Virus record (IMG/VR): IMGVR_UViG_3300016665_000824
Location: 1-64,000 of that record
DNA length: 64,000 bases
DNA from: a virus
Strand: one strand, 5' to 3'
Shown: in pieces, positions 24,943-54,875 of the stretch
Layout of the letters: each line of letters opens with the position of its first letter
Position numbering within the stretch: position 1 is the first letter of the stretch
Made by a program: the position numbers and the translations under genes
Notes under the pieces: generated by a model
The model's database searches: none
Seen by the model: the letters and a program-made list of their open reading frames with translations, nothing else
Told to the model about the DNA's origin: nothing

Positions 24943-25341
24943 TTAAACGAGATAGCGACCCTTAGTTTCGTATACCAAGTCAGTCTTTTCAACGATCGCT
25001 TCAGAATCCACGGTCAGAGAACCTGAAGGTTTGACCGATCGCAAGAAGCATTTTTCGAGCAACAAGCCAGAAACATAGATGTCTGAGTAGGCGGGGTCGG
25101 TCTTCTTCACTAAGTTGCTGAGGTTGGTTTCAGCAGTAGATTGAAGGGTTGTAACCTCTGTTCCAGACAAGCCGCTAACAGAATACTGAATAGTTCTTTT
25201 CGCAGCGTTAAAAGGAGTGATATCTCCTGCATAGTTAACGTTGAAGGTAATCGAGTTGCCTTCGCCTAATGACAGTTCGTTTGGCTGACAGACTCTTCCA
25301 GGCAAATCTGGGATTGATTGGAGAGTAATAGCAATAGACAT
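24943..25341 (-). CDS. hypothetical virion-module protein (132 aa, Ser/Thr-rich)
   Basis: last gene of the minus-strand structural operon. Confidence 0.6.
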   Translation of the reverse strand: MSIAITLQSIPDLPGRVCQPNELSLGEGNSITFNVNYAGDITPFNAAKRTIQYSVSGLSGTEVTTLQSTAETNLSNLVKKTDPAYSDIYVSGLLLEKCFLRSVKPSGSLTVDSEAIVEKTDLVYETKGRYLV

Positions 25342-37321: not shown

Positions 37322-37351
37322 GGTAACAAGGACTTGAGTCCTTGTTACCTT
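37320..37351. terminator. bidirectional terminator hairpin (14-bp stem) between convergent moron and tape-measure genes
   Basis: AAGGTAACAAGGAC ttga GTCCTTGTTACCTT; both stop codons lie in or at the stem. Confidence 0.65.
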
Positions 37352-40300: not shown

Positions 40301-43300
40301 TCGTCTGCACGGAGAATCCCTGCATCTTGAAGGGCGTTAGCCGTTTCAAGCAACTCGCCCAACTTCGCCTTAAATAGCGCAGGATCTCCCGCAGACTTGT
40401 TTAAAGCGTCAAGGGCTGCATTATATTTTGAAGTTGCCTGCTCGATCGCATTACCAATACGAGGAAGATCAATAGCCTGAATTTGCAGGTTTACCGACTT
40501 GTAGGATTCTTGAAGTTTTCTAAGGGCTTCAAGTTCTCGATCTCTTTCTGCGTCTAAACCTTCTACAGCTTGAACCTGATTAATGATTGCCTCGATATTG
40601 TTGTTTCTTTCGGCGATCTCCTTCTTCTTATTCTCGATCTGAATATCAAAACGCGCAGCACCATCTTTGTCGCTTAGCGCTTCCGCCTTGGACTTTTCCT
40701 GCTCTAATTTAATTAAATCCTCTTGGAGTTTCTTCTGAGCAGACAGTCCTATTCCTAGATCAACCCGCCGAGAAGCTGACTGATTTAAGACGTTTTTATT
40801 ATCTTGCAATCTTATTTGGACGGCTTTCTCTTCAAGATTTCCTGCGCGATCGCCTAGACCTAACTTGTCGGAAGCGCCAAACGTTACCGTTCTTAGCCCC
40901 TCTCTTGCCGCGTCACCTGTAAGAGCAAAACCTTCTGTAACGCGAGTACCAATATTGTCTCTCTCTTTTTTAACCTTCTCCCTCAACGCGTCTTCGGAGT
41001 TGGTTGGTTTGCTTTGTAATCCCCTCAACTCTTTGAGTTTTGCGAGCTGTTGATCATACAGCTTTAAAGTGGGGTCATCTTGGAGGATGCTCTTGTCTTG
41101 GATTGAGGCAACATATTTTTCGCGTTCTGAGGTTAGGTTTGCTAGCTCAGAAGCGGCATCCTTTCCTTGCGATTTGTTTAGGATCGCAACCCTTGCGTCA
41201 CTATCTTTGAGCGCATCGTTGAGTTTGTCTACATTGGCTGTAGCTGCTTTTGTTTCCTGATCGACGTAGCCAACCAAGGTTGTTATTGCGGCGAAAGCTG
41301 CGCTTAACAATAATGTAGGACCAATTTCTGCGGCGAGGGCGGCGAAGGATTTGCTGATACCTTTGACATTCTCGGAAATAAACGAGGTAGCGCCTACAGC
41401 ACCCTTTTTGAGGTTTGAATAAAGTCCACCGACACTAACGTTCGCGTTTTGAGTGAAATCAGCAAAGCTAGACTTAGCTCGCGAGCCAAAATCTTTGACA
41501 CCAGAAAGAGCATCTTGGAAACCTGTCTTTAACCCAGCACCTAAATTTTTGAGGCTTAAATCGGGGAGAGAAATAGACTTGACTTGATTGACAAACTTAT
41601 CTATAGCGATACGAGAATTAGCCAAAGAAGCGGGAATATTTAGCTCTCTAAAGAACTTATCGAGTCCCAGTCTCGCGTTTGCAAGAGAGGTAGGGACGTT
41701 GATCTGGGAAAATGCTTTTTCAACCCCGTTGCGGAGGTTTACCAGCGAGGCAGGAATGTTGATATTTGCAAAGGCGTTCCGAATGCTAGCTTTAGTATTC
41801 TCAATTTGCGCGGGGAGATTTGCAAAGATACCAGTTTTTTGACTCGAATCCTGACTGAACCTTCCCTTAATGTCAGATATAAAACTACCAATAGAGTCGC
41901 CCAAGGACTTCAAAGAAGTTTTTGTCTTTGTGGCGATCGCTCCAATATCTTCTGCGAACTGTTTTGTGAACGGGACGGGAATTGGATTGGCAATAATCTG
42001 ACTTCGGAGCGACTTGATTCTGTCGGTAGTCTCCTGATAACTTTTAAGAGCCGCCGCACGAGCTTCGGGGGTTAACGACAGATCTGTAGAGTCTTTTTGG
42101 CTCACGATCGCCTGCTGTTTTAGTCCAGAGACCTCTCGTTTAGCGGCGACAACCTGAGTAGGATTTAGAGTCGTTGACTGAACTGGCTTGCCCCCAAGTA
42201 TTTCTCGAACACTATCGTTTAGCTTCTTGATGCGCCCAAAGGTTTCGCCAATACTGGCTCCAGCACCGCTAATTCCCGTGTTAATTGTCTTAAATACATT
42301 GGAGATTGTGCCACCAAACAGCTTGGTAACAGCGATCGCGATTAGCAATCCGCCAACTACTTTTTGAAAAGGATTGGAGTTCTCGCCAAAAGTAAAGAAC
42401 GGCAATATCGTGTCTGCAACCACCTTAATTACTGGTGCTAATACCGACCCTACCGTATCCGCAAACTTACGAATAGCTGCGGTTACATCCTGAATGATTT
42501 TTTGTAGACCTTTGTTCTTCAGGATTAACTGATCGAAGAAGACAAAACCAACAAATGTTCCAGCACCCAACAAGGCTGTTGATACGGCAAAAGACCTTGC
42601 CGCAGCTCCTGCCGCTTTTAATGAATTAGAGAAGATGCTGTTTACTTTCTCGGTATTTGTAGCGACATCGGCAAACTTGCCCAAGCTCTTGGCTGCGTCC
42701 GCAATCAACGGGCTAAACGAGCCAAATAGTTGGGACTTACCAACAATGCCTGAGAAAGCTGTTAAGGCGATCGGCGCTGCCTTCGTAAATCCTTGCAGTG
42801 CGGTTCCTAGCGCAGGAAATGCTTGAGTAAGTCCAATCAGTTTTACCCCAAAGCCACCTAGTGTTGGCAAAGCGGCAGTTATAACTCCCGCGAATGGCGA
42901 GAACGCACCGAGAACTTTGCCCAACTCTTTTTGGACTAAGCCAGCAGCACCAGGGATCTTGTTTAGATTCTCCGCCAACAACAGGAATCCAGCAGACCCT
43001 CGACCGACAACCGAACTTAAATTAGCAAAAGTGTTGACAACCCCGTTAGTACGCTTGTCAAGCAGGAAGAGAACTTCTCCCAAACCTGGTACAAGATTAA
43101 ACATCAACGAGAAGCCTTTGTTTAATGCCCCGATCGCGCCCGAAAGAACTTTTGCGCCGACGGAGATGCCGATCCAAATCCCTCCAAGAGGACCTACAAC
43201 ACCTGCAATTTGTTCAAACACATTAATAGCTGGCTGAACAACAGCAAGAGTAAGGCTCATCGCATCGGAAAAAGCCTTTACTGCGCCAGCGAGAGACTTG

Positions 43301-45780
43301 AATAGGTATTCTGGAACCTGCCCAAAGATCTGGAAGAATGGCCCCGCGAGACTTTTTAGGGTCGCAATCACGTTCTTGAATACGTCAAACAGTATTCCTG
43401 CGAGACTCCCTACTTGAGCAGCGATCGCGTCTTTATTCTTTGAGAAATACTGGTAAAACCCGTCAAGTTCCGCTACTAAAGGTGCGAGGAATTTCTCCCC
43501 AGCGAGTCTGCCGATCTCATCAACTAGCTCTTGAATATTGCTAACAATCCCACCCACGGACTGAGCAGCTAGCTTGTTTCCAGACTTAAATGCTTCTAAT
43601 CGACCTAAAAGCTCTTTGACGAAGGTTCCTTGAGACTTCCACTTAGCCACCATCTCATTGTTGAGGTTAAGCGATTTGGCAAGAGCTGAGTTTTGGTCAA
43701 TAGTTCCCGAAGTTATACTAACAACCTCTTGACGGGCTTGATATAAAGGTATGCCAAGCGTTCCGAGTGCGGCGGCGAACGAGGTTGTAATATTAGCAGC
43801 GTCATTCAAGGACGCGCCAATGTTGCTTGCCTGCCCAGCAACGATCTGAAAAACCCCGACAAGATCTTTACTGGTTACGCCGACCAGCTCTAACGAGTCT
43901 TTACGAATTTTATCGATCGCCCCTTCAACCGCAGGGCCAACCGCCTTGATCGCTTGAGTTGGATCTGATACGCGATCGCCATTAACTACGATTCTATTGG
44001 TTGCCGCTAAGCTCGCCTGAGTAGAGAGTAGTTGCTCTTGGAGCCTGATGTTTTGCCCAATCAACAGATCGAAAGGGCCGTTTTGTACAAATCCTTGGAG
44101 TGCCTGCAATCCCAATCCCAAGAAAGCAAGTCTCTGAGATACTTCAAAGATCGCGTTGGTTGCCTTGCCAGCACCTTCGCTAATTAGATTGAATACTTCT
44201 AGTGGTTCCGTCGCCCCCGCCACTGGAGCAACCACTGCGGCGGCAATATCTACAGGTTCTTGCAGCTTCGGGGCTATCTCTTGAGTCTTTTGAAACCCCT
44301 TAACGATAACATCATCAACACTATCGATGACAGTACCGACTTCGGCAAGGATTGTTGATCTCAGTCCATCAACAAAATTCTTACCTGCGATCGCGCCAGT
44401 ATCTTTTAAAAGCGAACTAAATGTTCCGCCAAAAAACTCGTCAATCTTGGTTGCAAGTTTTTGCAGTGAGCCATCCCCGCTTCCGATAGAATCAATCGCC
44501 GCGCCCAACCCTCCGTCAATAGCATCGACAGCTTTTAGGGCTAAATTCCTGAGAGGCGCAAGGATGCTAGTATCTTCTACGCTAAACAAGCTATTGAGAG
44601 CCTGTCCAACGCCTCCCTTTTGAGTCTCTATTAAAGGGCGGAGGATGGCAAAAGCGGATCTTAAATCCTCTGGAATTGCTTTTTCTAGTCCATTAAATAA
44701 CTGTCCAGACAACGCATTTCCAAAATCTTGCAACTCATTAGAGGCAACAATCGACCCCAAATTTGCCACCCCGATCTTGTTGGCAATCAGTTTTGCTAGT
44801 GGTGGTAGTGGCAACTTATCTACAAGCTGAGGGATTCGCCCCGCTAGGCGGTTGATCAGCTCAGATACAGAGCCGCCTAACTGTTCGTCAAGAATTTTAA
44901 ATTGATCGGTCGCCTCAGATCTGCTGCCGACGATTGCCCTGCCGACCGATCCTCCTAAAGCGCTAGATAAGCGCCCTACAACTCTTTGTCCGTCCTCAAC
45001 GTTTGGCGCGATTGCGTTAACGGCAAAAGCTTTAGCAGCACCCGATACCGACCCACCAGCCAACTGCTTCGACACTTCCGACAGCAATCCAGTTTTTGCC
45101 GCAGTCCGAAATGAGTTGGCGACAATTGAGGTTAAATCCGCCCCGAAAGCTTGGTTAACAATACCTTTTAAAGCGTCGGGGAGTCCTCCCCCAACAACGC
45201 CCGAAATGAGTGAGTCGGCGATCGCGTTATCTAGCGTTCCAGTAAAAGCCTCAACTCCCACTCCAAGCTTGCGCTGAATTTCTTGATTTAGCTTTGAAGC
45301 CCTAACATTTGCTTCTAACGCTTTACCGAAACTGTTTGCAGAATCGCTAAGTATCTGCGTAATTCTCTTGCCGTTATCCGAAAATATTGCAGACTGAGCT
45401 TGCTCTGCCGACTGCTTAGATAAGAATCCTCCTCCGACATCTTTTCCTGCAGAGGTAATCCCCTTGATTACCTTTGAGAGCGGAGCTAGTTTTGAAACTG
45501 CACTGTCGGCGACATTCGAGATCTGTTCTAAAAATATTTTGCCCGACTGCGTATCTAGTACATCTCGAACCGACTGAATTGCGTCTCTCAGCCCTCCAAA
45601 CGTGCCAATCGCGGTTGCCCCTACCGTGCTGATCGTTCCGCCAAGGGCTTGTACAGATCCCTTTGTTACGTCCGCAACAACACCAACACTTTTTAGACCA
45701 GCAGCTATCTCCGAAACTTGTTTGCTTGCTTGATCTTTCGCCTGTATTAAGATCTCAACAATATTGGTTTGCGGAGCCAT
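37345..45780 (-). CDS. tape measure protein (2811 aa)
   Basis: giant ORF with Gly/Ala-rich hydrophobic N-terminal half and ~1000-aa coiled-coil (Q/E/K/A-rich) half, upstream of baseplate/fibre genes. Confidence 0.75.
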   Translation of the reverse strand: MAPQTNIVEILIQAKDQASKQVSEIAAGLKSVGVVADVTKGSVQALGGTISTVGATAIGTFGGLRDAIQSVRDVLDTQSGKIFLEQISNVADSAVSKLAPLSKVIKGITSAGKDVGGGFLSKQSAEQAQSAIFSDNGKRITQILSDSANSFGKALEANVRASKLNQEIQRKLGVGVEAFTGTLDNAIADSLISGVVGGGLPDALKGIVNQAFGADLTSIVANSFRTAAKTGLLSEVSKQLAGGSVSGAAKAFAVNAIAPNVEDGQRVVGRLSSALGGSVGRAIVGSRSEATDQFKILDEQLGGSVSELINRLAGRIPQLVDKLPLPPLAKLIANKIGVANLGSIVASNELQDFGNALSGQLFNGLEKAIPEDLRSAFAILRPLIETQKGGVGQALNSLFSVEDTSILAPLRNLALKAVDAIDGGLGAAIDSIGSGDGSLQKLATKIDEFFGGTFSSLLKDTGAIAGKNFVDGLRSTILAEVGTVIDSVDDVIVKGFQKTQEIAPKLQEPVDIAAAVVAPVAGATEPLEVFNLISEGAGKATNAIFEVSQRLAFLGLGLQALQGFVQNGPFDLLIGQNIRLQEQLLSTQASLAATNRIVVNGDRVSDPTQAIKAVGPAVEGAIDKIRKDSLELVGVTSKDLVGVFQIVAGQASNIGASLNDAANITTSFAAALGTLGIPLYQARQEVVSITSGTIDQNSALAKSLNLNNEMVAKWKSQGTFVKELLGRLEAFKSGNKLAAQSVGGIVSNIQELVDEIGRLAGEKFLAPLVAELDGFYQYFSKNKDAIAAQVGSLAGILFDVFKNVIATLKSLAGPFFQIFGQVPEYLFKSLAGAVKAFSDAMSLTLAVVQPAINVFEQIAGVVGPLGGIWIGISVGAKVLSGAIGALNKGFSLMFNLVPGLGEVLFLLDKRTNGVVNTFANLSSVVGRGSAGFLLLAENLNKIPGAAGLVQKELGKVLGAFSPFAGVITAALPTLGGFGVKLIGLTQAFPALGTALQGFTKAAPIALTAFSGIVGKSQLFGSFSPLIADAAKSLGKFADVATNTEKVNSIFSNSLKAAGAAARSFAVSTALLGAGTFVGFVFFDQLILKNKGLQKIIQDVTAAIRKFADTVGSVLAPVIKVVADTILPFFTFGENSNPFQKVVGGLLIAIAVTKLFGGTISNVFKTINTGISGAGASIGETFGRIKKLNDSVREILGGKPVQSTTLNPTQVVAAKREVSGLKQQAIVSQKDSTDLSLTPEARAAALKSYQETTDRIKSLRSQIIANPIPVPFTKQFAEDIGAIATKTKTSLKSLGDSIGSFISDIKGRFSQDSSQKTGIFANLPAQIENTKASIRNAFANINIPASLVNLRNGVEKAFSQINVPTSLANARLGLDKFFRELNIPASLANSRIAIDKFVNQVKSISLPDLSLKNLGAGLKTGFQDALSGVKDFGSRAKSSFADFTQNANVSVGGLYSNLKKGAVGATSFISENVKGISKSFAALAAEIGPTLLLSAAFAAITTLVGYVDQETKAATANVDKLNDALKDSDARVAILNKSQGKDAASELANLTSEREKYVASIQDKSILQDDPTLKLYDQQLAKLKELRGLQSKPTNSEDALREKVKKERDNIGTRVTEGFALTGDAAREGLRTVTFGASDKLGLGDRAGNLEEKAVQIRLQDNKNVLNQSASRRVDLGIGLSAQKKLQEDLIKLEQEKSKAEALSDKDGAARFDIQIENKKKEIAERNNNIEAIINQVQAVEGLDAERDRELEALRKLQESYKSVNLQIQAIDLPRIGNAIEQATSKYNAALDALNKSAGDPALFKAKLGELLETANALQDAGILRADEVAGAFQKVATNVSADRDLQIKAQEAITAAYKKEADRRIAIYDAQLSQIQALLATGRISESESIALSGQLEEKKIQAQSEADQKALRARQQILETNANEQKQQIKRDRELAEAQLAAATGDPSKIRQVREAQAPVLQGKIDDTSQQIKDAEARKKALQESISTGVAGDNAAEDVKKVTDELAVLQSRLNSLQSQKGTLDSTLKLSEDTQGQLEGITKQIEDGEKALSSLKAGNAETLQRFNTVKDAPFFNSSEYTAQIKAEQDAIAKKESELRTLQTKRDQLSSIAKPDAERQNLAKNSIADANKKELDLVKATAAQKARLEEDADNKRKDAEAKIAKARSERFVKGLDAQIKETLAAEKVGETQRLAQIAQLRKSGIKLESEIKLQETAERKRSITLELQLEQQKQKAIADLEKKGVGVSKETKNANLIKVAELSKQLAEAELAAIEGLVSAVRDRLVLESQKYAVTIEQQNLKLERQKLLFTALEKGLENQSRLSESANKLAQSTVALRESEFAALNKIYDRQQAAIRAAGGQGNFADLELEEKKLILAEKLAVLKLNSLKQQQKFEAESLEREIQKRDLLLERKKVENEIAIAKKKVDIASQDAAIKAAELEVKLRPQSEEAKLKLAQAKLGQEKNFLELGGLQQEKGFIADEAKVNEIVNKNDRQALANKQQGETNTAIGDVIGATRDPALQERLQREQLARLTQNTGTAALTTTDVSNAVAAASQPVNVRGASFKNPTSALLGQVEQGGVFTAAPEPKPDNAPFATSFEELAKKYPDKGMAGSFEELNKKYPAQANSFEELNAKYGGKPTEEAKPEQAIASSFDKLTQQIDEGFSKVLVAPDLKVKDLTAGLEAEFNRVSKQISENPVTLKIDDKAFEEAQKKLDKPIALLDEGQLQRAEALAQAFGSLGGKDLVPQQQGNPTGAALGTSGNITVNAPIAINTQSNISSAAGVGNDVQKAVNDTLNNVLRRVAGVTSGVR
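37840..37995 (-). repeat. three tandem ~45-nt repeats encoding SFEEL-x-KKYP inside the tape measure gene
   Basis: GCTCCTCAAA recurs three times on + strand; protein repeats SFEELAKKYP / SFEELNKKYP / SFEELNAKYG. Confidence 0.6.
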
Positions 45781-45823
45781 AAGAATAACCGAGAGAGAGT
45801 CTTCTCAGTTATTCTTGTGGGGT

Positions 45824-46171
45824 TTACTTTTGCTTTAGCTTTTCTGGCTCATATCGCGACACCAAGGCGATAAGCAGATCTTGAGACGGCTTTATTTCTG
45901 AGTCAGCCCATTCTTTGAAATACTTGTGATATCTAGAACAGCTAGCCTCGGCTTTAGCGGTTTGCTCTAGGGCTAGCTGCTTCGTGGGGTCGCTATCAGG
46001 GAGGGTCTTTAACCCCTCCTCTTTTCCTAGCAGACTATACGAAGTCGAGCAATACCTGTAATCTTCGGCGATCGCTGTCGCTGCCGACTTGGACTGAAAA
46101 GACCTTACAGCGCCAACTGAAAGCAACGCTAGCACGACTACCGCCCCTAATGTGATTGGATTAAGCTTCAT
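45824..46171 (-). CDS. hypothetical protein with N-terminal signal peptide/membrane anchor (115 aa)
   Basis: internal ATG 46171 of track ORF 45824-46288; N-terminus MKLNPITLGAVVVLALLSVGAV. Confidence 0.5.
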   Translation of the reverse strand: MKLNPITLGAVVVLALLSVGAVRSFQSKSAATAIAEDYRYCSTSYSLLGKEEGLKTLPDSDPTKQLALEQTAKAEASCSRYHKYFKEWADSEIKPSQDLLIALVSRYEPEKLKQK

Positions 46172-46220
46172 TGATTTTTGTGATTTCTTCACGAAGATTA
46201 TAGCGCGATCGCCTCGCAAT

Positions 46221-48428
46221 TTATCCCTTACCGTTACTGGGTTTTGAGGTTGGCTTATAGACATCATAGAGAGAGCCAATCTTCCCATTCTTCTTAGAGG
46301 CGTATAAAATCATAGGATCTTGACCCTCCATAGGGGCGAAGCCAGCCTTTTCGTAAATACTCTTACGCTTACTGCCAGCCCCATCTTTGTCATAAGCCCC
46401 AGCCGTAAGAATAGAGTTGTCGGGCATAGCCTCAATATGCTTGGCAAACGAAGCCTTTGTCATGCGAATAATTTGTTTTGCTCCAGAAGCCCCAAGGTTG
46501 GCGGACTCCTCCTTGTTATTGGATTCGTTTATGGCGAAAGAAACCTCGTAGACACTTCCTCCAGAAGCTTCTTTTTTGTACACAGTCGTAAAGGTGTACA
46601 AGGCTGGTCCAACAGAAGCTACAGTATAAACCCCACCATTCTTTCTATCCCTGTAAGTGAAGCTGTTCGATTCTTTGTCTACGTCAATAAGATCCCGACC
46701 CTTAATAGACTGAGTTTTTCTTGCCAAGGCGAGCTTGGTCATTCCGATAAGACCTTTTGCTTTGTCTTTAAGGGCTGGGCTTAAATCAGATCTATCCAAA
46801 GCCCGATCCGCCACTTTCCCCAAGGCTAAACTCTGCTTGTAGGTCATAATCAGTGCAACATCTGAAATCTTGTAATCTTTTGTCGCTTGAATATTGCCAA
46901 TACCGACGACTCCAGCTACCACTGAACCTACGCTACCTGCGACGATCGCTGCCTTGCGAGCGCCTTTGTTAGAAAGTAGTCCGATAGCCTTGTCTACTGG
47001 TGTCTCCTTTTTTTGTAGGGGCGGCTGAGGTATAGAGAATTCCGTTTTTGGTTGTTGTGACTCGCTTGGATTACCCCCTTTTGTTGACTTGCCTCGGTTT
47101 GCAGCGATCGCCGCCGCACCACCAACTAAGGCAGCAGCACCTAAACCAGTACCAACATTTCGGGCTAAATTATTCTCGCTTTTTTTCTCGCCGATCTTTT
47201 GACAGGCGTTTCCACGCTGGACATAGCCTTCCTTGCATTTGAGCGTTCTACCCTTGTCGTAGCGCAAAGATACCGACATACGCCCCTCAAGATAAGACGA
47301 ATCATTCTGTAGATCGGCATCAGTCCGCCTTGTAGTTGCACTTTGATAGATGTTGCTAAATAGGTAAAGAACTTCGATATCCTCGTCATCCTCAACCGAG
47401 TCTCCCCTCTTCTCATTTATCTGGGATATCTTCTCGTTTGTTTTAGCCTCTACGTTTTCTCTAAAGTCCTTGAGTCCACCCCTCTTTGTTGCGAGGGTGA
47501 GAGCAGTGCCAAGAAGAATGGTGTCTCGCTCAGCTCTTCTTAGAACCTTCTGAAAAGGAGATAAGGTAGATTCATTCTTACCACCCGAAATCGACTTGGA
47601 CACATATTCTCCCGCAATGCGTTGAATTTCAGGATCTTTAGACCACTCGGAAGCTACGGATGAGCCATATTTCAAGGCTGCGCTACGAGCTTTTGGATTG
47701 GTCAGCACCTCTTTTGCGATAACCATAGAGGCTTTTTTCTTTGCTTCAACTAAGTTTGTTTCGTTACTAAATTCAGGAGCGACAAAAGTTCCGACAGCGC
47801 TGGCTACTTCTGGCTTTTCCGCAAGAATACTCAAAATTGCGGTAGCTTTATCTCTGTAAGCAGGATTGTTTAAATCCTTGATGCGCCTTTTAATCAATAC
47901 TTGAGATAAATTGTCTCCCTCACTTTTGATTTCACCTTTCTTCTCTTTTGACAAAAGGTTTGCCACTACAGAGACAGTCTTGTTCACCGCCACCGAAGCC
48001 GCCTTTTTCGTTGCGCCCAATATAATCTGATTCTTTTTCTGAGAGATCGCAGCCCCAGTTACCGCAACAACGGTACTGGCTCCAGCCGCCAAATACCTCT
48101 TCGCCAGAGGAAGTCCTTTCTCCCCTTTTTTGGAGGCAGTAGAACTCGAAAGAAGGGCAACAGGGGCGGGATCTACGGCTCTGTTTTCTTGCGGAGATCT
48201 TCTCGATGCGATCGCCGCCACACCGCCGACTAAAGCCGCAGCCCCTAGCCCTGCGCTAATATTTCGAGCTAAATCACCCCCAGCCTTCTTCTCGCCAATC
48301 TTCTGGCAAGCAGCCCCGCGCTGTACATAACCTTGCTTACACTTAATCTTCTTCCCCGCATCTTGACGTAGAGCGACAGACACCTGCCCCTCAAGATAAG
48401 CTAAGTCACTGGCTAAATCTCTCGTCAT
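46221..48428 (-). CDS. large modular protein with duplicated Cys-motif + Gly/Ala-zipper module (735 aa); function unknown
   Basis: two copies of YLEG..SV.LR.D.G...KCK.GYVQRG.ACQKIGEKK ... GLGAAALVGG.AAIA. Confidence 0.8.
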   Translation of the reverse strand: MTRDLASDLAYLEGQVSVALRQDAGKKIKCKQGYVQRGAACQKIGEKKAGGDLARNISAGLGAAALVGGVAAIASRRSPQENRAVDPAPVALLSSSTASKKGEKGLPLAKRYLAAGASTVVAVTGAAISQKKNQIILGATKKAASVAVNKTVSVVANLLSKEKKGEIKSEGDNLSQVLIKRRIKDLNNPAYRDKATAILSILAEKPEVASAVGTFVAPEFSNETNLVEAKKKASMVIAKEVLTNPKARSAALKYGSSVASEWSKDPEIQRIAGEYVSKSISGGKNESTLSPFQKVLRRAERDTILLGTALTLATKRGGLKDFRENVEAKTNEKISQINEKRGDSVEDDEDIEVLYLFSNIYQSATTRRTDADLQNDSSYLEGRMSVSLRYDKGRTLKCKEGYVQRGNACQKIGEKKSENNLARNVGTGLGAAALVGGAAAIAANRGKSTKGGNPSESQQPKTEFSIPQPPLQKKETPVDKAIGLLSNKGARKAAIVAGSVGSVVAGVVGIGNIQATKDYKISDVALIMTYKQSLALGKVADRALDRSDLSPALKDKAKGLIGMTKLALARKTQSIKGRDLIDVDKESNSFTYRDRKNGGVYTVASVGPALYTFTTVYKKEASGGSVYEVSFAINESNNKEESANLGASGAKQIIRMTKASFAKHIEAMPDNSILTAGAYDKDGAGSKRKSIYEKAGFAPMEGQDPMILYASKKNGKIGSLYDVYKPTSKPSNGKG
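47080..47330 (-). repeat. intragenic duplicated module, copy B (approximate bounds)
   Basis: DNA and protein similarity to 48190-48428. Confidence 0.5.
48190..48428 (-). repeat. intragenic duplicated module, copy A (approximate bounds)
   Basis: see 47080-47330. Confidence 0.5.
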
Positions 48429-48763
48429 TTCTTGCTCCGCTTTTTAATCATCTTGCTAATAGCTTCAGCTCCATTAGCCACTTTAGACTCAACCTTGCCC
48501 GTAGCTCGACCCGTGTTAAAGATTGCCTTACCAGTATTAAAATCCTCTTTCAATCCTGTTTTACCTTTATCGGCAAGTTTGGCGATCGCCACAGCAGTCA
48601 GTCCCGCGATCACGCCACGACCAACTGCGCCAGCAACACTCTTAATCGCTGTTTTAAGTTTGCCTTTACCACAAGTAGCGCCTTGAGGGATGCAGTAGGT
48701 TTTACCATCTTCTCCTTGGCAGGGTTTGCCGCGATCGCACGTTGTGTCTAGTCTAATCTTCAT
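48425..48763 (-). CDS. small Cys-knot + Gly-zipper membrane-helix protein (112 aa)
   Basis: TTCDRGKPCQGEDGKTYCIPQGATCG then AIKSVAGAVGRGVIAGLTAVAIA; ATGA coupling to downstream gene. Confidence 0.7.
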   Translation of the reverse strand: MKIRLDTTCDRGKPCQGEDGKTYCIPQGATCGKGKLKTAIKSVAGAVGRGVIAGLTAVAIAKLADKGKTGLKEDFNTGKAIFNTGRATGKVESKVANGAEAISKMIKKRSKK

Positions 48764-50468
48764 ACTTATTTTTCACCGCTTTTTCCACCGCAAGTCTGGC
48801 TGCAATACCAATCGCGATCTTAACTATGGGATGAGAACCTTCTGCGTAAGAAGGAGAGGCTTTTTGTAACGCTGCAAATGAAGCTTTCGTGCCTACATAT
48901 TGCGTTGCCGCGTCAGAAAACATCAATAGCGCAGTTTTTTCTGTCTGACCTAACGAGGAGTCGGACAACGTTCTCTCTGTCGCATCACGAGCAACTTTAC
49001 CTCCAAAGGCTCCAACCAAACTAGAACCAATCTCATATCCAAGCATCTTGAGTTTGTCTTTTTCTTGCCTCCCAATCGATTTTAAGGTGACAAAATCGCC
49101 CACTTGCTGGACAAAGTTCTTTTTCGCTTGCGGAGTTTGAATCATGGCTTGGAGGCTTCTGCCTGCGCTTGAATTGCGGAGTTTTCCAATAGAGCGGGTT
49201 AAGCGATCTCCTAGTCCGCCCCTTCCTTTTACTGTGGATAGAATAGCCTCCCCGACCTGCATCCCGTCCCTAGCCTTCTGCCTTAAGTCGTGTTGCTTCC
49301 CCTTAGGGGCATTAGCGATTAGGGCTAGCGTAGTCGCCGAGGCTGCTGCTACCCCTATTGTTGCCAAGGTTCTTGAGGAAATAAAAGGTTTTCTCTTTTC
49401 TGACCCGCAGGTTGCGTTTTTTGGGATACAGTAAGTCTGACCGTCCTCGCCCTTGCACGGCTTTCCGCGATCGCAGGTAGAATCTATTCTATTTTGAATA
49501 GATCTTGTTTTTTTGTAGATGTATCCGCTAGTCCTCCCCGTCTTAGATCTCAAAAAAGAATCTGTTTCTGTACTGATTTTGCGTGCAAACCCCTGATAAT
49601 CCTGAAAACGATCGGTCACAGTTCTGGGTTGCTTGTCCTGCCATTTTTCTGTTAATTGCCTGTTTAGATTGGCGTGAACGTCAGCCAACTCTTTAGCTAG
49701 TGAGCTACTAGGAGAAAATGCCCCCTCTCTTTTAGCCTGTAATACAGAGGTGGTTTCCGCTCCAGTCGCACGAATTTCTTTGATGTTACTAAAAAACGCT
49801 CCTACTTTTAAGTCGGCGGGACTAAAGGCTGACGTATCTCCAACCCCAGCAATATCTGGGTGATTGTGAGTCATCAGTACTGTGTTTTTTGCGGCTTTTT
49901 GATTATACGCATCGGTTATTCCAAGAGAGACCGAGCCTATCTGCCCTTTTCTGATCAGTGAAGGCTTGCCATCCACGTCAAAAGCAAAAAGAGTCTCGAA
50001 ATCATTATGCTGGATCTTTCTTTCTGCCGCGTAAACACTAATTGCAAGTTCTTTGGGGAGGTGGCTATATGCAGGAGCATCTCTTGCGGGAATGCCATTC
50101 TTGGCTACGTCTTCTCGTTCTTTCGCAAACTCCTTATAGGTTTCAACATCATCAAGCTTCTCTCTTATAACCTTATTGGCAATCATGGCTCCCACCCCCA
50201 GCGCTAAAAACTTAGCCGCCGCCTGAGGATCTTTAGAAGCTAATGCGGCTCCTGCCGCTAGTACAGTCAGTTTTGCAAGAGTTCCAGTTCCATCGCCCTT
50301 ACTAGCTGTGGATAGGGAACCAGTTCTAGATATCGGATGACAGGCGGAGCCTCTTTGGACATAACCTTGCCGACAATTGATTTTTTTGTACTCATCCCGC
50401 CTCTCCACATATCGCGATCGCGACAGTAGATACCCCATTTCGTACTCGTTCTTGTTATCTAGTCTCAC
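48753..50468 (-). CDS. large modular protein (571 aa) with N-terminal Cys/Gly-zipper module, a second 4-Cys motif, and an HNHP...SPAD motif
   Basis: GTG start in GTGA overlap with upstream stop; shares modules with 735-aa and 112-aa proteins. Confidence 0.75.
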   Translation of the reverse strand: MRLDNKNEYEMGYLLSRSRYVERRDEYKKINCRQGYVQRGSACHPISRTGSLSTASKGDGTGTLAKLTVLAAGAALASKDPQAAAKFLALGVGAMIANKVIREKLDDVETYKEFAKEREDVAKNGIPARDAPAYSHLPKELAISVYAAERKIQHNDFETLFAFDVDGKPSLIRKGQIGSVSLGITDAYNQKAAKNTVLMTHNHPDIAGVGDTSAFSPADLKVGAFFSNIKEIRATGAETTSVLQAKREGAFSPSSSLAKELADVHANLNRQLTEKWQDKQPRTVTDRFQDYQGFARKISTETDSFLRSKTGRTSGYIYKKTRSIQNRIDSTCDRGKPCKGEDGQTYCIPKNATCGSEKRKPFISSRTLATIGVAAASATTLALIANAPKGKQHDLRQKARDGMQVGEAILSTVKGRGGLGDRLTRSIGKLRNSSAGRSLQAMIQTPQAKKNFVQQVGDFVTLKSIGRQEKDKLKMLGYEIGSSLVGAFGGKVARDATERTLSDSSLGQTEKTALLMFSDAATQYVGTKASFAALQKASPSYAEGSHPIVKIAIGIAARLAVEKAVKNKYED

Positions 50469-53083
50469 TGGCTTTGCTTCCTCGCTTTACGGCGTTGAGT
50501 TAATGTTGCATTGAGTTTTTTGGCGATCGCGTCAGCAGCATTTACCGACAGGTAATCCACTGCGCTGCCGTTAGTTCCTGAGAAGCTATCGGGGTTTTTG
50601 CCCTTGAATGGAGTTCGACTCCAGAGATCGCCGTCCGACCACAGATCGGTCTTTGGAGTTTTTAGCAGATCTGTATCTACTTTTTTCTTATCTACCTTCT
50701 CTCCCCCAAAACCCAGCTCAGGAGTTCCCAAAGTAACAAGGTGAATTTGTTTAGCAATATAAGTCCCAGCAACATTTCCTTGCGAACCTGTTTTTTGCAT
50801 TGACTCCAAGATGTCCAAAGCCCTTTTTGCTGTTTCTCCACCTTGCTTTAGCCCAATAACAGAAATAGCTGGGTATTCAGTTGAGCTTCCCTCGTATGAG
50901 CTGTTTCCGATAGCGTAAAGTTCCGCAGCCAACTTTACAGCTTCAGGGTCTCGTCCCGCTTTGAGGGTCTTACTCATCACGGCTTCGTAGCTTCTTGCCA
51001 TAGTGTCAATAACACCCATAACCCTGCCCCTAGACTGAGGCGGGAGGGTTCGATCAAAAGAAACCACGTCGCTTTGATCGTAGAAGTCTTTCTCTGCTTG
51101 AGACTGAAGCTTTGATCCGTTACTTTTAATTGATTTGCCCAGAACATCGCTAGGAGTTTCTCCATCTCCTATTGCGATAATGACGCTGGGATTTATTGGG
51201 GTAGGCAAAGTCGTTCGTCCACTTGCTACAATCTCTTGAGCCTCAAGAGCAGACTTCGCTATATTGTTGTTGTATTTAACCCTCGCAGCCACAGCAGCAG
51301 TCACCGTTACTTGACCAAGTACGGCTACAGTATTAATCGCTGCTGCTGTGGGATTGTCTTGATATTTATCCTTGATCGCAGAAACCAGATTCCACGTCTT
51401 TCCTAGCGTTGGGTTTACCGCAGTGATCGCCGCCGCTATTTCTTTTGCCCCCTTGTCGCTAGACTTGCTTCCCGCAACAGAATTAGAGAAAAATCCAAAC
51501 GTCTCGCGGATTTTATCTCTGACCGTGCTATCGGTTAAGTAGTCCTCAATCTCATGCCCCTTGACCGAGCTGACAAACTGCGAAAACCTCTTAGGCAGGA
51601 TTGAGAAAGGATCGTTTTTGGAGGTAATAGTGCGGTTGTTAATGTTCGCCCAGTTCTTGTCGTCTTGAGTTGTGCCACCCGTCAAACCGAAGGATGCACC
51701 GCCAAGTCTGGCGATATTGAGGCGCTTCAGAACTTCTCCACCATCAAGCCCCCTAGCAGGCTTGATCCGACTCAAAATTTCGGCAGCTTCATCAACAACG
51801 TTGCCCCCAGAACCGTGACTAACTACGTTCAAAGGCTTGTCACGATACTTAGAGCCATAAGCATACAATTTAGAAGCCAGATCCACCGCAGCTTCGTTTC
51901 TGCCACCGACAATATTGCTTAGATATTTGCCAAAACTTTCTTTAGCTACATACCCCAGATACAAGGGATTGTAGTTCCCGTTTTTATCCTTTGGGAGAAT
52001 ATCGGTTGGAGGAACATTAAACTCCGAATTGTTGAAGGGGATGACCTGCTGGGTCTTGTTAAACCACTGTTCCCGTTTTGAAGTGTCAAGCGGAGTTTTT
52101 AAATATTCAGCGAGCTTATCACCAGAAGAGCCAAGGTTGGAAAATCCTCCTACAGCAAAAGTTAGTTGAGGTTTGGAGGTTGGCTCGACAGGAGTAGTTT
52201 GTGCTCTTTGGTACGCCATTAGCGCCGATTCAGGCAAGCCTTCTTTGTAGCGATCGCGAGCGGTCATCATTACCGATGAGGGAATGCCCAGCAGTACGCT
52301 TGCCGCTAATATGCCTGCCGCAGGGCGATTGTCTCCAAAAAACTTGCTAATCTTTTCGATATCTTTCCATGCGCCAGCAACGGGTTGGGGTAGCAAACTC
52401 TTAAGAGCTTTCTTGCTAGACTCTGCGCGATTCAAGCCTTCACGAACAATCTTCTGGCGATCGGGATTGGCTTTTTGCAGGCGAATTGATTCTCGCAATT
52501 GAGCCTGACTCATATACGAGTAGCGATACACGCCTCGTTTGCGAGCTTCTTCCTTTAATTCCCGAATATTCTTGTTATCAAGATCGTCCTCAACTGGGGC
52601 AACGCCAACAAATTTCGCTTTTTGAACTTGGTTTACCGCATCATTCAGATCGGAAATCTCTTGTCTATTTAAAGCTTCAGGAACGTCAATACGGCAGGTG
52701 TCCGTCTTTGCAATACAAGCGCCTTTGCAGGATAGTCCAACCTTACAGTTCTTGGGCTTAGAAATTTTATCGGTACGTTGACCGATATTGTTTGCATAAG
52801 CAAGTAAGTACTGATCTGCGTCAGTATCTACTGCATCAGTGCGACCATCCTGTACCTGCTTATACTCAATGCGATCTCCTAATTCCAGCCGAATCAGCTT
52901 TTGATCCTTGTCATCATCACGAAACAGACAAGTGATAAGCCCGTCATTACCGATATTGATATTAAGGATCTGATCGATACTCCCGTAGGCGCGAGAAATA
53001 ATGCGAGTTAATAGCCTCGCAATCGTTCTTCTTGCGGCGAGAGGATCTGTGGTTTGAATTGGTGGTGGTGCGATCGCGTACAT
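50465..53083 (-). CDS. large modular protein (872 aa) with N-terminal Cys motif; function unknown
   Basis: N-terminus ...NCKVGLSCKGACIAKTDTCRID; Ala/Val-rich hydrophobic segment; VSHGSGG motif mid-protein. Confidence 0.75.
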   Translation of the reverse strand: MYAIAPPPIQTTDPLAARRTIARLLTRIISRAYGSIDQILNINIGNDGLITCLFRDDDKDQKLIRLELGDRIEYKQVQDGRTDAVDTDADQYLLAYANNIGQRTDKISKPKNCKVGLSCKGACIAKTDTCRIDVPEALNRQEISDLNDAVNQVQKAKFVGVAPVEDDLDNKNIRELKEEARKRGVYRYSYMSQAQLRESIRLQKANPDRQKIVREGLNRAESSKKALKSLLPQPVAGAWKDIEKISKFFGDNRPAAGILAASVLLGIPSSVMMTARDRYKEGLPESALMAYQRAQTTPVEPTSKPQLTFAVGGFSNLGSSGDKLAEYLKTPLDTSKREQWFNKTQQVIPFNNSEFNVPPTDILPKDKNGNYNPLYLGYVAKESFGKYLSNIVGGRNEAAVDLASKLYAYGSKYRDKPLNVVSHGSGGNVVDEAAEILSRIKPARGLDGGEVLKRLNIARLGGASFGLTGGTTQDDKNWANINNRTITSKNDPFSILPKRFSQFVSSVKGHEIEDYLTDSTVRDKIRETFGFFSNSVAGSKSSDKGAKEIAAAITAVNPTLGKTWNLVSAIKDKYQDNPTAAAINTVAVLGQVTVTAAVAARVKYNNNIAKSALEAQEIVASGRTTLPTPINPSVIIAIGDGETPSDVLGKSIKSNGSKLQSQAEKDFYDQSDVVSFDRTLPPQSRGRVMGVIDTMARSYEAVMSKTLKAGRDPEAVKLAAELYAIGNSSYEGSSTEYPAISVIGLKQGGETAKRALDILESMQKTGSQGNVAGTYIAKQIHLVTLGTPELGFGGEKVDKKKVDTDLLKTPKTDLWSDGDLWSRTPFKGKNPDSFSGTNGSAVDYLSVNAADAIAKKLNATLTQRRKARKQSQ

Positions 53084-53085
53084 GA

Positions 53086-54492
53086 CTATTTTTTAGCTTG
53101 CTTCTGGTTTTCTTCTTCCGCCTTGTTTATGGCGTGGGCTGCGAGAGCTAGAGATCCAGCAGTTGCCGCAACGTTCGCTCCGATCGCGCCAGCAACAGAT
53201 GCTCCGCGACCATGACCACGCGATCGTAAAGCTCTGTAAGTGCCGCTACCGATCGGCCCAGCCAGCGCCTGTACCGCCCCCTTTCCAAAAGCTTTGGCAG
53301 TCTCCCCAGCACAATTCTTTTCTTGAGGAATACAGATCTTTCCGCAAGGCTTAGTACCTGAACCGCACTTTGCGTCTTCACGAAGCTGCTCGACGAATGA
53401 GTCGATGCGCTCATCTAAGGATTCGTATCGACGACTTGTTTTATTCCACACTCTATTTGTAGTCATATTCGCTCTTCTAATTCGTTTTGGCATCTCCCTC
53501 CGAGTTGTTTTAACCTCAGATGCTTTTACGTCTACCGTATTATTCTTGTCAACAAAAGTCTGCATAAAACTTCTAGCGAAATTGTCTACGGCGTTAAGAG
53601 TTGATCGGGTGGTAGATCCCGCCTTTTTTGCCGCCTCGTTTAGGTCGATAGTTTTGTCGGCAAGATTCTTCCTCGCGACGCGATCGCGTTCTAGCCTTTC
53701 TTTTGTTTTTCGATACAACTTACCCGCCGCCGCACCTGCGGAACCAGCAGCTCTTGTTAATAGTGGCTTCTGAGGTTCGGCGATCGCACTACCACTACTC
53801 TTGCCCGATTCACTCGCAGCAATAGTTAATCCACCAGTAGATACCTTGGAAGCAGGAGGGTTGTATGGCAGTCGAGTTGGAGGTGGGGGTGTAGGAGTTT
53901 CAGGTTTATTGACGGGGACTAGTGCTCCACCGATTTCTGGCTTGGGCTTGGGTGATGGAAGGCGATCGGGCGGGGCTAGCCTCCTGCTTTCTATCTCGCC
54001 TTGCCGAGCTGCTTCTCGCTCAAGATCTTTCTTAGCCTTATATCGAAAATACTCCTCTTCTGCCGCAGCTTCCTCTGCTCTCCACCGCGCCCTCCGAGTT
54101 TCGCTATCCTTTTCGCCAGCCTTGTTTGCGCCCTTCTCGATAATGGGGCGAAGACCTACGGTGATGGCTTTATTCGCAATTACACCTGCGCCGAGTGATG
54201 CGGCAGTTCCACCGACCTTGATCGCCGCTTTCTTAGCAAACTCACCAACCTTATTGGGAGGTGACTGAGGAAGTATAGAAGCAGGCTCCGTCACAGGGAT
54301 AGGCTTCTGTTCTTCTGGCTTCTTCCTTAGCGCGATCGCTGCTGCCCCCAACCCACCCAAGGCAAGTGCAGCGCCAACACCCGCAGCCCCTTTCTTTGCT
54401 GCACTGGCATTGCGGAAGTATGAATAAGCCTTACGTCCATTTTGCGCTGGGACTTTAACTTCTACCTGTGCGTCCTGTCTTTCAGTACTCAT
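53086..54492 (-). CDS. modular protein (468 aa) with Gly/Ala-zipper helix, Pro-rich linker and C-terminal Cys motif
   Basis: GAAGVGAALALGGLGAAAIA near N-terminus; PSPKPKPE...PETPTPPPPTRLP linker; CGSGTKPCGKICIPQEKNCAG; ATGA coupling. Confidence 0.75.
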   Translation of the reverse strand: MSTERQDAQVEVKVPAQNGRKAYSYFRNASAAKKGAAGVGAALALGGLGAAAIALRKKPEEQKPIPVTEPASILPQSPPNKVGEFAKKAAIKVGGTAASLGAGVIANKAITVGLRPIIEKGANKAGEKDSETRRARWRAEEAAAEEEYFRYKAKKDLEREAARQGEIESRRLAPPDRLPSPKPKPEIGGALVPVNKPETPTPPPPTRLPYNPPASKVSTGGLTIAASESGKSSGSAIAEPQKPLLTRAAGSAGAAAGKLYRKTKERLERDRVARKNLADKTIDLNEAAKKAGSTTRSTLNAVDNFARSFMQTFVDKNNTVDVKASEVKTTRREMPKRIRRANMTTNRVWNKTSRRYESLDERIDSFVEQLREDAKCGSGTKPCGKICIPQEKNCAGETAKAFGKGAVQALAGPIGSGTYRALRSRGHGRGASVAGAIGANVAATAGSLALAAHAINKAEEENQKQAKK

Positions 54493-54875
54493 CTGTTTGG
54501 CATCCTCGTTAAAATAATTTCCCAGCTAAAACTTTTGTTCTCAATAGTCCCCATTACCTCATTACACTTGATCGAACCATCGACAATGTAATACTTGCCC
54601 TTGCCCGTAAGCTGAGCCTCGGTGTATGCCGCAGATATACCGCTCACCTGATAGTCGTCAATACCAACCTTGATATTAGTGCTTTCAAACAAGGCGACAG
54701 TACGAGGGTTAACCCGTAGAATCGTGGGGTGAGGCAATATCTCTAGCCTTGTTTCTCCCGACGTAGTGCGAGTCACTACTGTTAATGGCAGCACATTAGG
54801 CGCACCGATCGCATCTCCTGCTAGGCGATCGCGCAGTGGTTGAAGTTTGGCAATAATCTTTGAGGCTAGTGACAT
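54489..54875 (-). CDS. hypothetical head-tail region protein (128 aa)
   Basis: ORF. Confidence 0.6.
   Translation of the reverse strand: MSLASKIIAKLQPLRDRLAGDAIGAPNVLPLTVVTRTTSGETRLEILPHPTILRVNPRTVALFESTNIKVGIDDYQVSGISAAYTEAQLTGKGKYYIVDGSIKCNEVMGTIENKSFSWEIILTRMPNR

Follow-up and report, generated by a model that had tools for sequence, protein, structure and literature searches.

A six-gene island of mosaic proteins sharing a cysteine-containing unit beside the tape-measure gene of a putative cyanophage

The six-gene island described here is encoded by the virus record IMGVR_UViG_3300016665_000824 of IMG/VR, of which positions 1 to 64,000 were analysed (64,000 nucleotides (nt), referred to as the window). 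It consists of tightly packed genes on the minus strand (45824-54492) that lie between the connector genes and a tape-measure homologue. An earlier reading made from the letters alone (the sequence-only reading) had placed genes for 468, 872, 571, 112, 735 and about 115 amino acids (aa) between small head-tail joining genes and a 2811-aa gene, and all six were recovered as open reading frames (ORFs) at these positions. Along the minus strand the order is a scaffold/protease-family gene, the major capsid protein gene, small connector genes, the island, the 2811-aa gene and tail-end genes. Five of the products carry a short cysteine-containing element, here called the Cys unit, in combination with hydrophobic helices and with attached domains that differ between related phages. 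On balance the island is best explained as a split, polyvalent-like set of virion proteins in which the Cys unit serves as an incorporation adaptor.

The upstream edge of the island is marked by g128 (54489-54875, minus strand), the last conserved gene of the connector region, which matches phrog_27999 and is a homologue of ORF077R of Planktothrix phage PaV-LD. g128 and g468 share an ATGA overlap, g468 and g872 are separated by a 2-nt spacer, g872 and g571 share a GTGA overlap, g571 and g112 overlap by 11 nt, g112 and g735 again by ATGA, and a gap of 43 nt separates g115 from the tape-measure start. The ATGA and GTGA overlaps from which translational coupling had been proposed are thus present, and the coupling itself is suggested by them. 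There is no enrichment of promoter-like or terminator-like sites across the island region, and the island therefore reads as one operon. All six products are basic (isoelectric point (pI) 8.5-10.1, the lowest value being that of the 115-aa form of the sixth), whereas the adjacent connector proteins are acidic.

The first product, g468 (53086-54492, minus strand; 468 aa, pI 10.1), opens with a degenerate unit that lacks cysteines and in which RQDAQV precedes a Gly/Ala helix (aa 5-55, nt 54328-54480). Its middle region, which is Pro-rich and of low complexity, leads to an R-E-D tripeptide with a motif of four cysteines (4C; aa 366-394, nt 53311-53397) and to a Gly/Ala hydrophobic helix (aa 433-455, nt 53128-53196). 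g872 (50465-53083, minus strand; 872 aa) starts with a conserved N-terminal domain (N-domain) joined to R-x-D and a 4C motif (aa 1-130, nt 52694-53083), which is recovered across the clade by jackhmmer. It continues with a Rho_N/SAP-like helix-extension-helix motif (aa ~168-198, nt 52490-52582) and two putative alpha/beta-hydrolase-like domains (aa ~300-535 with the elbow SHGSGG, and aa ~600-860 with the elbow GLKQGG), and its hydrophobic helices lie at aa 255-273 and aa 580-598. g571 (48753-50468, minus strand; 571 aa) has a GTG start and carries an R-R-D with a hairpin motif of two cysteines (2C; aa 23-43, nt 50340-50402), a Gly/Ala helix (aa ~64-101), a predicted JAB/MPN+ domain with a helical extension (aa 128-312, nt 49533-50087; E149...H201-N-H203-P...S216-x-x-D219), an R-I-D with a 4C motif (aa 327-354, nt 49407-49490), a further hydrophobic helix (aa 367-385) and a helical C-terminal domain (aa 390-571).

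The smallest complete example, g112 (48425-48763, minus strand; 112 aa), is a minimal unit in which R-L-D and its 4C motif (aa 4-31, nt 48671-48754) lead into a Gly/Ala hydrophobic helix (aa 43-61, nt 48581-48637), and the protein ends in a basic tail. Its sequence matches residues 327-417 of g571 at 44% identity, and its orthologues are 75-89% identical. g735 (46221-48428, minus strand; 735 aa) contains two units of R-x-D, 2C hairpin and Gly-zipper helix (aa 21-75, nt 48204-48368; aa 389-443, nt 47100-47264); a conserved C-terminal domain (aa 515-735, nt 46224-46886) comes after a third hydrophobic helix (aa 493-511). The C-terminus of g735 (KRKSIYEKAGF) was considered as a GNAT acetyltransferase and rejected, as the distance to the glycine motif does not fit and neither Pfam nor the PDB supports it; a profile search of the C-terminal domain against the PDB gave no match. 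The sixth gene, directly upstream of the tape-measure gene, forms an ORF of 154 aa when counted to the first ATG (45824-46288). Judged by the length of its relatives, translation most likely starts at M40 (46171), which gives the 115-aa protein g115 (45824-46171, minus strand). The orthologues of g115 in four relatives (L003, L005, L006 and L023) are 114-120 aa long and 41-46% identical. g115 has two cysteines and no Cys unit, and where a signal-peptide-like N-terminus had been attributed to it there is a signal-anchor-like hydrophobic helix with a Kyte-Doolittle (KD) value of 2.04.

The Cys unit accounts for 22 of the 23 cysteines of g468, g872, g571, g112 and g735, which fall into either 4C motifs (g468 C376/383/387/394; g872 C113/119/123/130; g571 C332/338/347/354; g112 C9/15/24/31) or 2C motifs (g571 C32/43; g735 C30/41 and C398/409). 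The 4C form, for example KCKVGKPCGDICIPKKNEC, has the spacing C-x5-7-C-x3(8)-C-x6-C with Ile after the third Cys, and the 2C form has the spacing C-x10-C (CKQGYVQRGxAC). Every motif of the island has R-x-D and basic residues upstream and, when all lineages are taken together, [RK]-x-D occurs at most 16 aa upstream in 121 of 141 units. The six cysteines of g571 are all retained in three orthologues with an overall identity of only 68-74%. When 25 4C units from three phage lineages are aligned the four cysteines are the sole invariant columns, and the upstream Asp and the Ile after C3 are conserved in at least 90%. A long form of about 130 aa, found in g872 and in all PaV-LD-type paralogues, consists of the N-domain with R-x-D-S, then R-x-D-A and then 4C, and is recovered across lineages and paralogues by jackhmmer at E 1e-38 to 1e-57. 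The 2C form is taken as a variant of the same unit because the upstream part of the long-unit profile is common to both.

The 4C motif is present in 7-8 copies in Aphanizomenon phage vB_AphaS-CL131 (CL131; ORF044, 045, 047 and 048) and in 7 copies in PaV-LD (ORF061, 065, 078-081 and 085). It is likewise carried by almost every one of 21 IMG/VR relatives and by genome contigs of Nostoc and Planktothrix. The copies sit in genes upstream of the tape-measure homologue, the operon position at which the sequence-only reading had suggested looking for the island in other cyanophages, with the exception of PaV-LD ORF061R and ORF065R, whose genes adjoin that of the portal. The Cys-unit island is a hallmark of the whole clade of phages of filamentous cyanobacteria and not peculiar to the window genome. 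Recurrence of the unit in each lineage of the CL131/PaV-LD clade that was examined, and its repetition in metagenomic proteins, mark it, as judged from its sequence, as a conserved domain and not low complexity.

No family in the libraries searched covers the unit. Neither Pfam, PHROGs and NCBIfam nor the sequence set of the PDB contains a match to it, in agreement with the earlier statement that the module is unlike characterised phage protein families, and the proteins that do match it are unnamed or labelled 'hypothetical protein'. The six proteins and their sub-domains likewise gave no meaningful matches in Pfam, PHROGs and NCBIfam, a profile search of the N-domain with 4C unit against the PDB gave no match, and megablast found nothing similar to the island in the phage collection. 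In word-indexed searches the short Cys-unit alignment yielded only one protein, of 70 aa, and the longer N-domain alignment yielded 18 short unannotated proteins; neither result served to delimit where the unit occurs. The 70-aa protein (P0005, from a Logan assembly) begins with a signal-peptide-like stretch and continues with two 4C motifs in tandem (CKTGVACGNTCIAKGKVC and CTKGKLCGKACIKATDVC), and the 4C motif may thus also exist as a free-standing, possibly secreted mini-domain outside virion proteins. A PaV-LD-like phage contig with five Cys-unit paralogues was found in a GTDB metagenome-assembled genome labelled Acetobacteraceae (L029); this label is probably a binning artefact because all other genome matches are cyanobacterial.

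In the full-length model of g571 (predicted local distance difference test (pLDDT) 39) each Cys pair lies at the two ends of a beta-hairpin, an arrangement that would fit the variable loop of 3 or 8 residues between C2 and C3. The unit is not a classical zinc ribbon or knuckle, as paired C-x2-C (or C-x2-4-C/H) is absent and there is no zinc-finger match in Pfam. Its 4C spacing loosely resembles the C-x6-C-x2-C-x5-C iron-sulfur loop of endonuclease III, and the 2C and long-loop variants of the sequence argue against an obligatory iron-sulfur cluster. The cysteines could either bind metal or form disulfides once virions reach oxygenated water.

The hydrophobic helices are coupled to the Cys unit in a lineage-dependent manner. 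Coupling was scored when a hydrophobic 19-mer (KD at least 1.5) started at most 60 aa after the last Cys, with random positions in the same proteins as the control. A helix follows 19 of 26 units in the window lineage (21% at random positions), 10 of 19 in CL131-like phages (9%) and 25 of 51 in metagenomic proteins (12%), and only one of 45 in PaV-LD-like phages, for which reason the pairing is called lineage-dependent. The proposal that five products reuse a Cys motif followed by a Gly/Ala helix thus stands for the cysteines and for most units of the window lineage. It does not extend to g872, whose first hydrophobic helix begins 125 aa after the Cys motif with the Rho_N/SAP-like motif in between, to the Cys-less N-terminal unit of g468, or to the PaV-LD-like phages.

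g571 has one identified enzyme-like domain, the predicted JAB/MPN+ domain. A profile search of 1.84 billion representative proteins with g571 recovered 90 relatives, most of which align to residues ~130-310. Among 31 homologues the JAMM motif E...H-x-H...S-x-x-D is present, with E, H-N-H-P and D invariant and S conserved in at least 90% (E149, H201, H203, S216 and D219 of g571); a G and an R of the domain are invariant as well. The AlphaFold2 model of the domain built from these homologues has a pLDDT of 88.3 and a predicted template modelling score (pTM) of 0.83, and aa 128-312 show the MPN fold in this predicted structure. The structural neighbours are Cap3 of the cyclic-oligonucleotide-based anti-phage signalling system (CBASS), BilC, PfJAMM1 and RadC 2QLC, and matches in the viral structure library BFVD comprise RadC-like, MPN and metalloprotease folds and three 'minor capsid protein' entries. 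In comparison with JAB/MPN+ metallohydrolases of the RadC-like clade, the g571 domain has an added C-terminal helical hairpin.

Pfam RadC is matched by two of 54 JAB-domain homologues (best E 1.3e-6), and in one of them (P0011) the match exactly covers one of its JAB-domain copies. A search of the JAB profile against the PDB returned RadC 2QLC at E 0.92 together with spurious repeat matches ('Pizza' designer proteins), and the full g571 family gave nothing useful in the same kind of search. The domain is homologous to CL131 ORF044. Phage_Mu_F is carried by 10 of the 54 homologues; the two MuF-bearing proteins that were examined (P0010 and P0011) are without a Cys unit, and eight JAB homologues with a Cys unit are without MuF. 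The substrate of the g571 domain could be a peptide bond, an isopeptide bond or nucleic acid.

The alpha/beta-hydrolase-like fold of g872 is the most conserved attached domain of the island. g872 is related to CL131 gp048 (ORF048; BLASTP E 4e-46), whose repeated domains match Pfam DUF676 (2.7e-8), Lipase_3 and DUF900 around GHSAGG elbows. Its membership of these lipase/esterase alpha/beta-hydrolases is transitive via gp048, as g872 itself has no Pfam hydrolase match, and it differs from them in lacking the canonical Ser. The G-x-S-x-G nucleophile elbow with its catalytic Ser is absent from both copies, and judged by sequence the two copies are probably pseudo-enzymes or users of a non-canonical nucleophile. 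CL131 gp047 and gp048 copies 1-2, on the other hand, have intact GHSxG elbows. The Rho_N assignment of the preceding motif draws on Pfam matches in 10 of 11 g872 homologues (best E 1.4e-6; g872 itself E 0.012) and on a profile match of the region to the Rho N-terminus in the PDB at E 0.004.

Other domains are attached to the unit in relatives. LRAT occurs in 7 of 11 Cys-unit proteins, PI3_PI4_kinase in 5 and HipA_2 in 3; His_Phos_1, NUDIX, PARP, cutinase, Lipase_3, NlpC/P60 and Peptidase_C92/C97 (PPPDE) occur once each, and an ADP-ribosyltransferase (ART) domain is matched by PaV-LD ORF079 and P0008. PaV-LD ORF079R (L002 23902-25677), which has the N-domain with 4C unit, matches ART (2.4e-5) and ADPrib_exo_Tox (3.4e-4) at sub- to near-threshold values and is on this sequence basis a candidate virion-borne ART. 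Metagenomic relatives have 2-5 units per protein of 864-2677 aa, each of which starts an attached domain; P0023 (2677 aa) and P0021 combine the Cys unit with LRAT, kinase-like, NUDIX and lipase domains in single polypeptides, and in P0022 a g872-like half is joined to the C-terminal domain of g735. The window has its domains split over six genes, with one enzyme-like domain in g571 and two degenerate hydrolase folds and the helix-extension-helix in g872. The gene starts of this split version coincide with R-x-D (MKIRLDTTC in g112 and MRLD in g571).

Relatives share 33-86% identity with the island genes, compared to 90-94% with g128 and g139 at its flank (91-94% for g128 alone). Gene content also changes: L004, L005 and L023 have an extra 404-aa JAB gene, L005, L006 and L023 lack g571, and half-length g735 forms occur among the relatives. 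The identity gap and the changing content are the pattern expected of a fast-evolving, modular protein set. A fusion of the Cys unit to the oversized CL131 portal was looked for and is absent; that portal has a MuF-like motif instead. The C-terminal half of this 1393-aa 'portal' (gp012, L026 4301-8482) carries the motif (…HLALNNK…CAFGCRCT…) followed by a Gly-rich tail, and gp012 appears to be a portal-MuF fusion without a Cys unit. The RefSeq label 'minor head protein' on PaV-LD ORF062R, 066R and 085R is not tied to Pfam MuF.

The presence of such proteins in virions is documented for CL131, a siphovirus of Aphanizomenon (vB_AphaS, family Siphoviridae; PMC6293099). Liquid chromatography-tandem mass spectrometry of virions purified on caesium chloride detected all of ORF044-048, with 9, 123, 11, 24 and 175 peptide-spectrum matches (PSMs), respectively (PMC6293099 Table S5), compared to 110 for the tape measure, 107 for the portal and 86 for the major capsid protein (PMC6293099). 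In PSMs per residue ORF045 equals the major capsid protein. The authors left ORF044-048 unannotated and identified no major tail protein (PMC6293099). The suggestion that the island encodes virion-packaged proteins gains from this, since gp044-gp048 are the syntenic counterparts of the window genes, and the data support virion incorporation of the homologous window set.

The genes around the island place the window in the same clade. The scaffold/protease-family gene (minus strand) belongs to PHROG 530 and to Pfam Pa193_gp24 in relatives. R-x-D was considered as a possible prohead-protease site, but the head gene that carries a protease label in PHROGs is a member of the Pa193 gp24 family, for which a putative scaffolding role is described (PMC11456595). 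The major capsid protein (minus strand, PHROG 264) is 34% identical to that of CL131 and 32.5% identical to that of PaV-LD, and the connector gene g139 (minus strand) is E217_gp27/DUF4054-like. The 2811-aa gene g2811 (37345-45780, minus strand) is the homologue of the annotated tape measure proteins CL131 gp049 and PaV-LD ORF088R (tblastn E 2e-137 and 8e-96), with 37-43% identity in its core, which bears out its earlier description as tape-measure-like. It also matches PHROG 305 at E 3e-4, contains no cysteines and has dense hydrophobic segments at aa ~790-1160. Relatives of its core were found in Nostoc, Planktothrix and Trichocoleus assemblies and, given these and the similarity of capsid and tape-measure sequences to CL131 and PaV-LD, the host of the window phage is most likely a filamentous cyanobacterium.

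Several further features were observed around these genes. An inverted repeat of 9 bp, AAGAATAAC-N18-GTTATTCTT, abuts the ATG of g2811 (~45781-45816, minus strand) and could form a translational or RNA-stability hairpin. The next gene after the tape measure encodes a 483-aa protein (34952-36403, minus strand) made of 3-4 tandem domains of about 120 aa (phrog_35535) that are homologous to CL131 gp030, a 126-aa virion protein, and a single-domain paralogue of 132 aa is encoded at the far end of the tail module (24943-25341, minus strand). Because the 483-aa protein occupies the usual position of a distal tail protein, the phrog_35535 domain may have a tube-like fold and the 132-aa paralogue may be the major tail protein of the clade. 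Beyond the head genes lie a Rha/Ant-like anti-repressor family gene (62870-63595, minus strand; PHROG 2657/373) and, on the opposite strand, a 657-aa ORF (60813-62786, plus strand) without similarity to the PaV-LD or CL131 portals. In one relative (L003 4363-5589, JGI contig Ga0485102_06099423) an IS605 OrfB / Cas12f-like TnpB gene is located between the g139 and g128 homologues, just upstream of the island.

MuF-fused polymorphic toxin and effector proteins form a class comparable to the products of the island. Polyvalent proteins likewise string unrelated enzymatic domains onto a particle-incorporation domain, are encoded in virion modules, are highly mosaic and are thought to enter the cell with the DNA (PMC5512222). 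The domains in common are RadC-like JAB, ART, kinases, NUDIX, NlpC/P60-type peptidases and lipases. Unlike polyvalent and MuF-type proteins, the six window proteins have no Phage_Mu_F or other Pfam or PHROG head domain and share instead the R-x-D and Cys-hairpin unit, with or without the N-domain and the Gly-zipper helix. This unit is repeated between the attached domains and does not occur once at the N-terminus, and the string is split into six genes with overlaps. Polyvalent/MuF effectors are the nearest concept, yet the window is without MuF and the paper on polyvalent proteins mentions neither cysteine motifs nor transmembrane helices or cyanophages (Iyer et al. 2017; PMC5512222). What is new is the adaptor unit and its beads-on-a-string use beside a siphovirus tape measure, whereas virion-borne effectors as such are already known.

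Two other systems offer partial parallels. The T4 internal proteins and Alt are paralogous and basic, have a shared targeting element with variable bodies that include an ADP-ribosyltransferase, and are packaged in the head and injected against host defences. The T4 targeting sequence is an N-terminal peptide of about 10 aa that is cut off by the prohead protease, whereas the common element of the window set is an unrelated Cys-containing domain of 30-130 aa that is often internal and repeated. The ejection proteins of podoviruses (T7 gp14/15/16, P22 gp7/20/16 and the pre-ejectosome of cyanopodophage A4; PMC8954989; PMC12002296) are also several co-encoded mosaic virion proteins with putative envelope-spanning hydrophobic segments and sometimes an enzyme domain. 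They differ from the window set in that there is no detectable sequence similarity and no counterpart of the Cys unit, and in that the relative CL131 is a siphovirus with a tape-measure protein, the normal provider of the conduit.

It is proposed that the adaptor consists of R-x-D and a short basic beta-hairpin closed by two or four cysteines, usually with a Gly/Ala-rich hydrophobic helix 12-40 aa further on, and in its long form with an N-domain of about 100 aa in front. Each product would then be made of adaptor copies and an attached domain that varies between phages; in the window these would be the JAB/MPN+ metallohydrolase-like domain of g571, the Rho_N/SAP-like motif and two degenerate alpha/beta-hydrolase folds of g872 and the C-termini of g735 and g571, which, like the middle of g468, have no assigned fold. 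The proteins would be expressed with the late head-tail operon, their translation coupled by the overlaps, and built into the particle as their CL131 counterparts are. The Cys unit would serve as the incorporation module and take the role that MuF plays for JAB, ART and kinase-like domains elsewhere, a function suggested by the few cases in which MuF or the Cys unit is used alternatively with the same kinds of domain. At infection the proteins would leave the particle with or ahead of the DNA, the Gly-zipper helices would insert into or oligomerise in host membranes, and the attached domains would act on host or DNA-associated targets early in infection.

Several observations weigh against this proposal. 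The JAB assignment of g571 rests on a predicted structure; g571 itself has no Pfam match, RadC included, the Foldseek ranking of the model against the PDB is weak (all E >1e-3), and the spacer between H-x-H and S-x-x-D is 12 aa, longer than the ~7 aa of canonical JAMM proteins. The hairpin geometry is a hint at secondary structure from a poor full-length model. The altered elbows of g872, SHGSGG and GLKQGG where gp048 copies 1-2 read GHSAGG, are kept in five close relatives, and with the canonical Ser lost an enzymatic effector role is doubtful for these domains. The earlier idea of delivered effectors gains support from the predicted JAB/MPN+ domain of g571 and from the ART, LRAT, kinase-like, NUDIX and lipase domains of relatives, and it is weakened for g872. 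The mutual exclusion of MuF and the Cys unit concerns a handful of proteins. The helices are Ala/Gly-rich and only moderately hydrophobic (KD 1.5-2.0), and since the Cys unit of PaV-LD-like phages lacks a helix, membrane insertion is not the universal role of the unit. Finally, mass spectrometry covers the CL131 counterparts, to which the window proteins are linked by homology and synteny, and analysed whole virions in which head and tail are not resolved.

A more elaborate version of the adaptor proposal is doubtful. Here R-x-D, Cys hairpin and Gly-zipper helix would form a self-contained and hitherto unrecognised delivery cassette of the clade, which would dock domains into the particle in place of MuF and carry them across the host envelope, the cysteines would act as a redox or metal switch, R-x-D would mark processing sites and the JAB domain would be delivered. 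The switch could be set in an oxidising environment and released in the host cytoplasm. The Cys unit could be a processing site for separately delivered enzymes because it lies between attached domains of giant proteins and because gene starts of the split version fall on R-x-D. One such enzyme would be a virion-borne JAB hydrolase, whose closest structural neighbours, by its model, are Cap3 and BilC, which reverse ubiquitin-like conjugation in bacterial anti-phage systems.

The alternative that survives best, although it is still improbable, is a tail-associated penetration apparatus in which the products would be tape-measure-like or tail-tip proteins that assemble with g2811, the Gly-zipper helices would form a trans-envelope conduit and the globular domains would be structural. 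The island directly precedes the tape-measure gene in the same operon, its Gly/Ala hydrophobic helices resemble the hydrophobic block of g2811, and CL131 ORF047 has been described as similar to a 'tape measure domain protein'. Membership of a tape measure family is not apparent, as only g112 matches Pfam TMP_2, below the cutoff and on the helix region (E 0.0047, 17.1 bits against a cutoff of 30.2), where sub-threshold Flp_Fap matches are found as well. The hydrolase-like domains of g872 are without a canonical nucleophile, so part of the set may indeed have a structural and not an enzymatic role. The lumen of a siphovirus tube is, however, unlikely to accommodate folded JAB and alpha/beta-hydrolase domains, other phages combine the JAB domain with the MuF head domain in one protein, and PaV-LD ORF061R and ORF065R, which have the unit, adjoin the portal gene and not tail genes. 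The ART, LRAT, kinase and NUDIX domains of relatives are moreover typical of injected effectors.

A purely architectural role inside the head is less probable again. Basic proteins would in this case be packaged to condense or position the DNA without a function in the host, which would agree with the basic character of all products, the DNA-binding motif of Rho_N/SAP type and the degenerate catalytic sites of g872, and the abundance of CL131 ORF045, which matches that of the major capsid protein per residue. It agrees less well with the strict conservation of the JAB motif residues in distant homologues, with the intact elbows of CL131 gp047 and gp048 copies 1-2, with the rapid reshuffling of attached domains, which looks like selection by host interaction, and with hydrophobic helices that have no obvious use in a DNA-packing core.

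That the island encodes a diverged major tail protein with tail assembly chaperones, or that its motifs are a compositional coincidence, is largely refuted and very improbable. In its favour, the slot between connector and tape measure normally contains such genes, the CL131 study identified no major tail protein (PMC6293099) and CL131 ORF045 is very abundant in virions. Against it, the profile searches on which the sequence-only reading had made its case depend gave no match to tube, chaperone or sheath proteins in Pfam, PHROGs or NCBIfam, and neither the sizes and multi-domain make-up of the products nor their folds (JAB, alpha/beta-hydrolase, helix-extension-helix) suit a tube or chaperone. 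The cysteines are invariant with conserved spacing across lineages whose capsids are ~33% identical to that of the window, a candidate tube-like domain (phrog_35535) is encoded elsewhere (34952-36403 and 24943-25341), no product is a small acidic chaperone with a programmed frameshift upstream of the tape measure, as all six are basic, and the 43 nt between g115 and the tape-measure start leave no room for a frameshift extension.

The adaptor proposal bears on how long-tailed cyanophages load proteins into their particles, which the known loading devices (MuF, T4-type targeting peptides and podovirus ejection proteins) leave unexplained. Across a clade that infects bloom-forming filamentous cyanobacteria, a Cys unit of 30-130 aa marks every variable virion protein beside the tape measure and bears the same kinds of enzyme domain that other phages attach to MuF. 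Folds can now be assigned to 'hypothetical' virion proteins that CL131 proteomics had detected without annotation. If the unit is an incorporation or translocation signal, it would provide a sequence handle for the injected proteins of ecologically important phages, would represent a testable convergent solution to protein delivery and may offer a tag for loading foreign proteins into virions.

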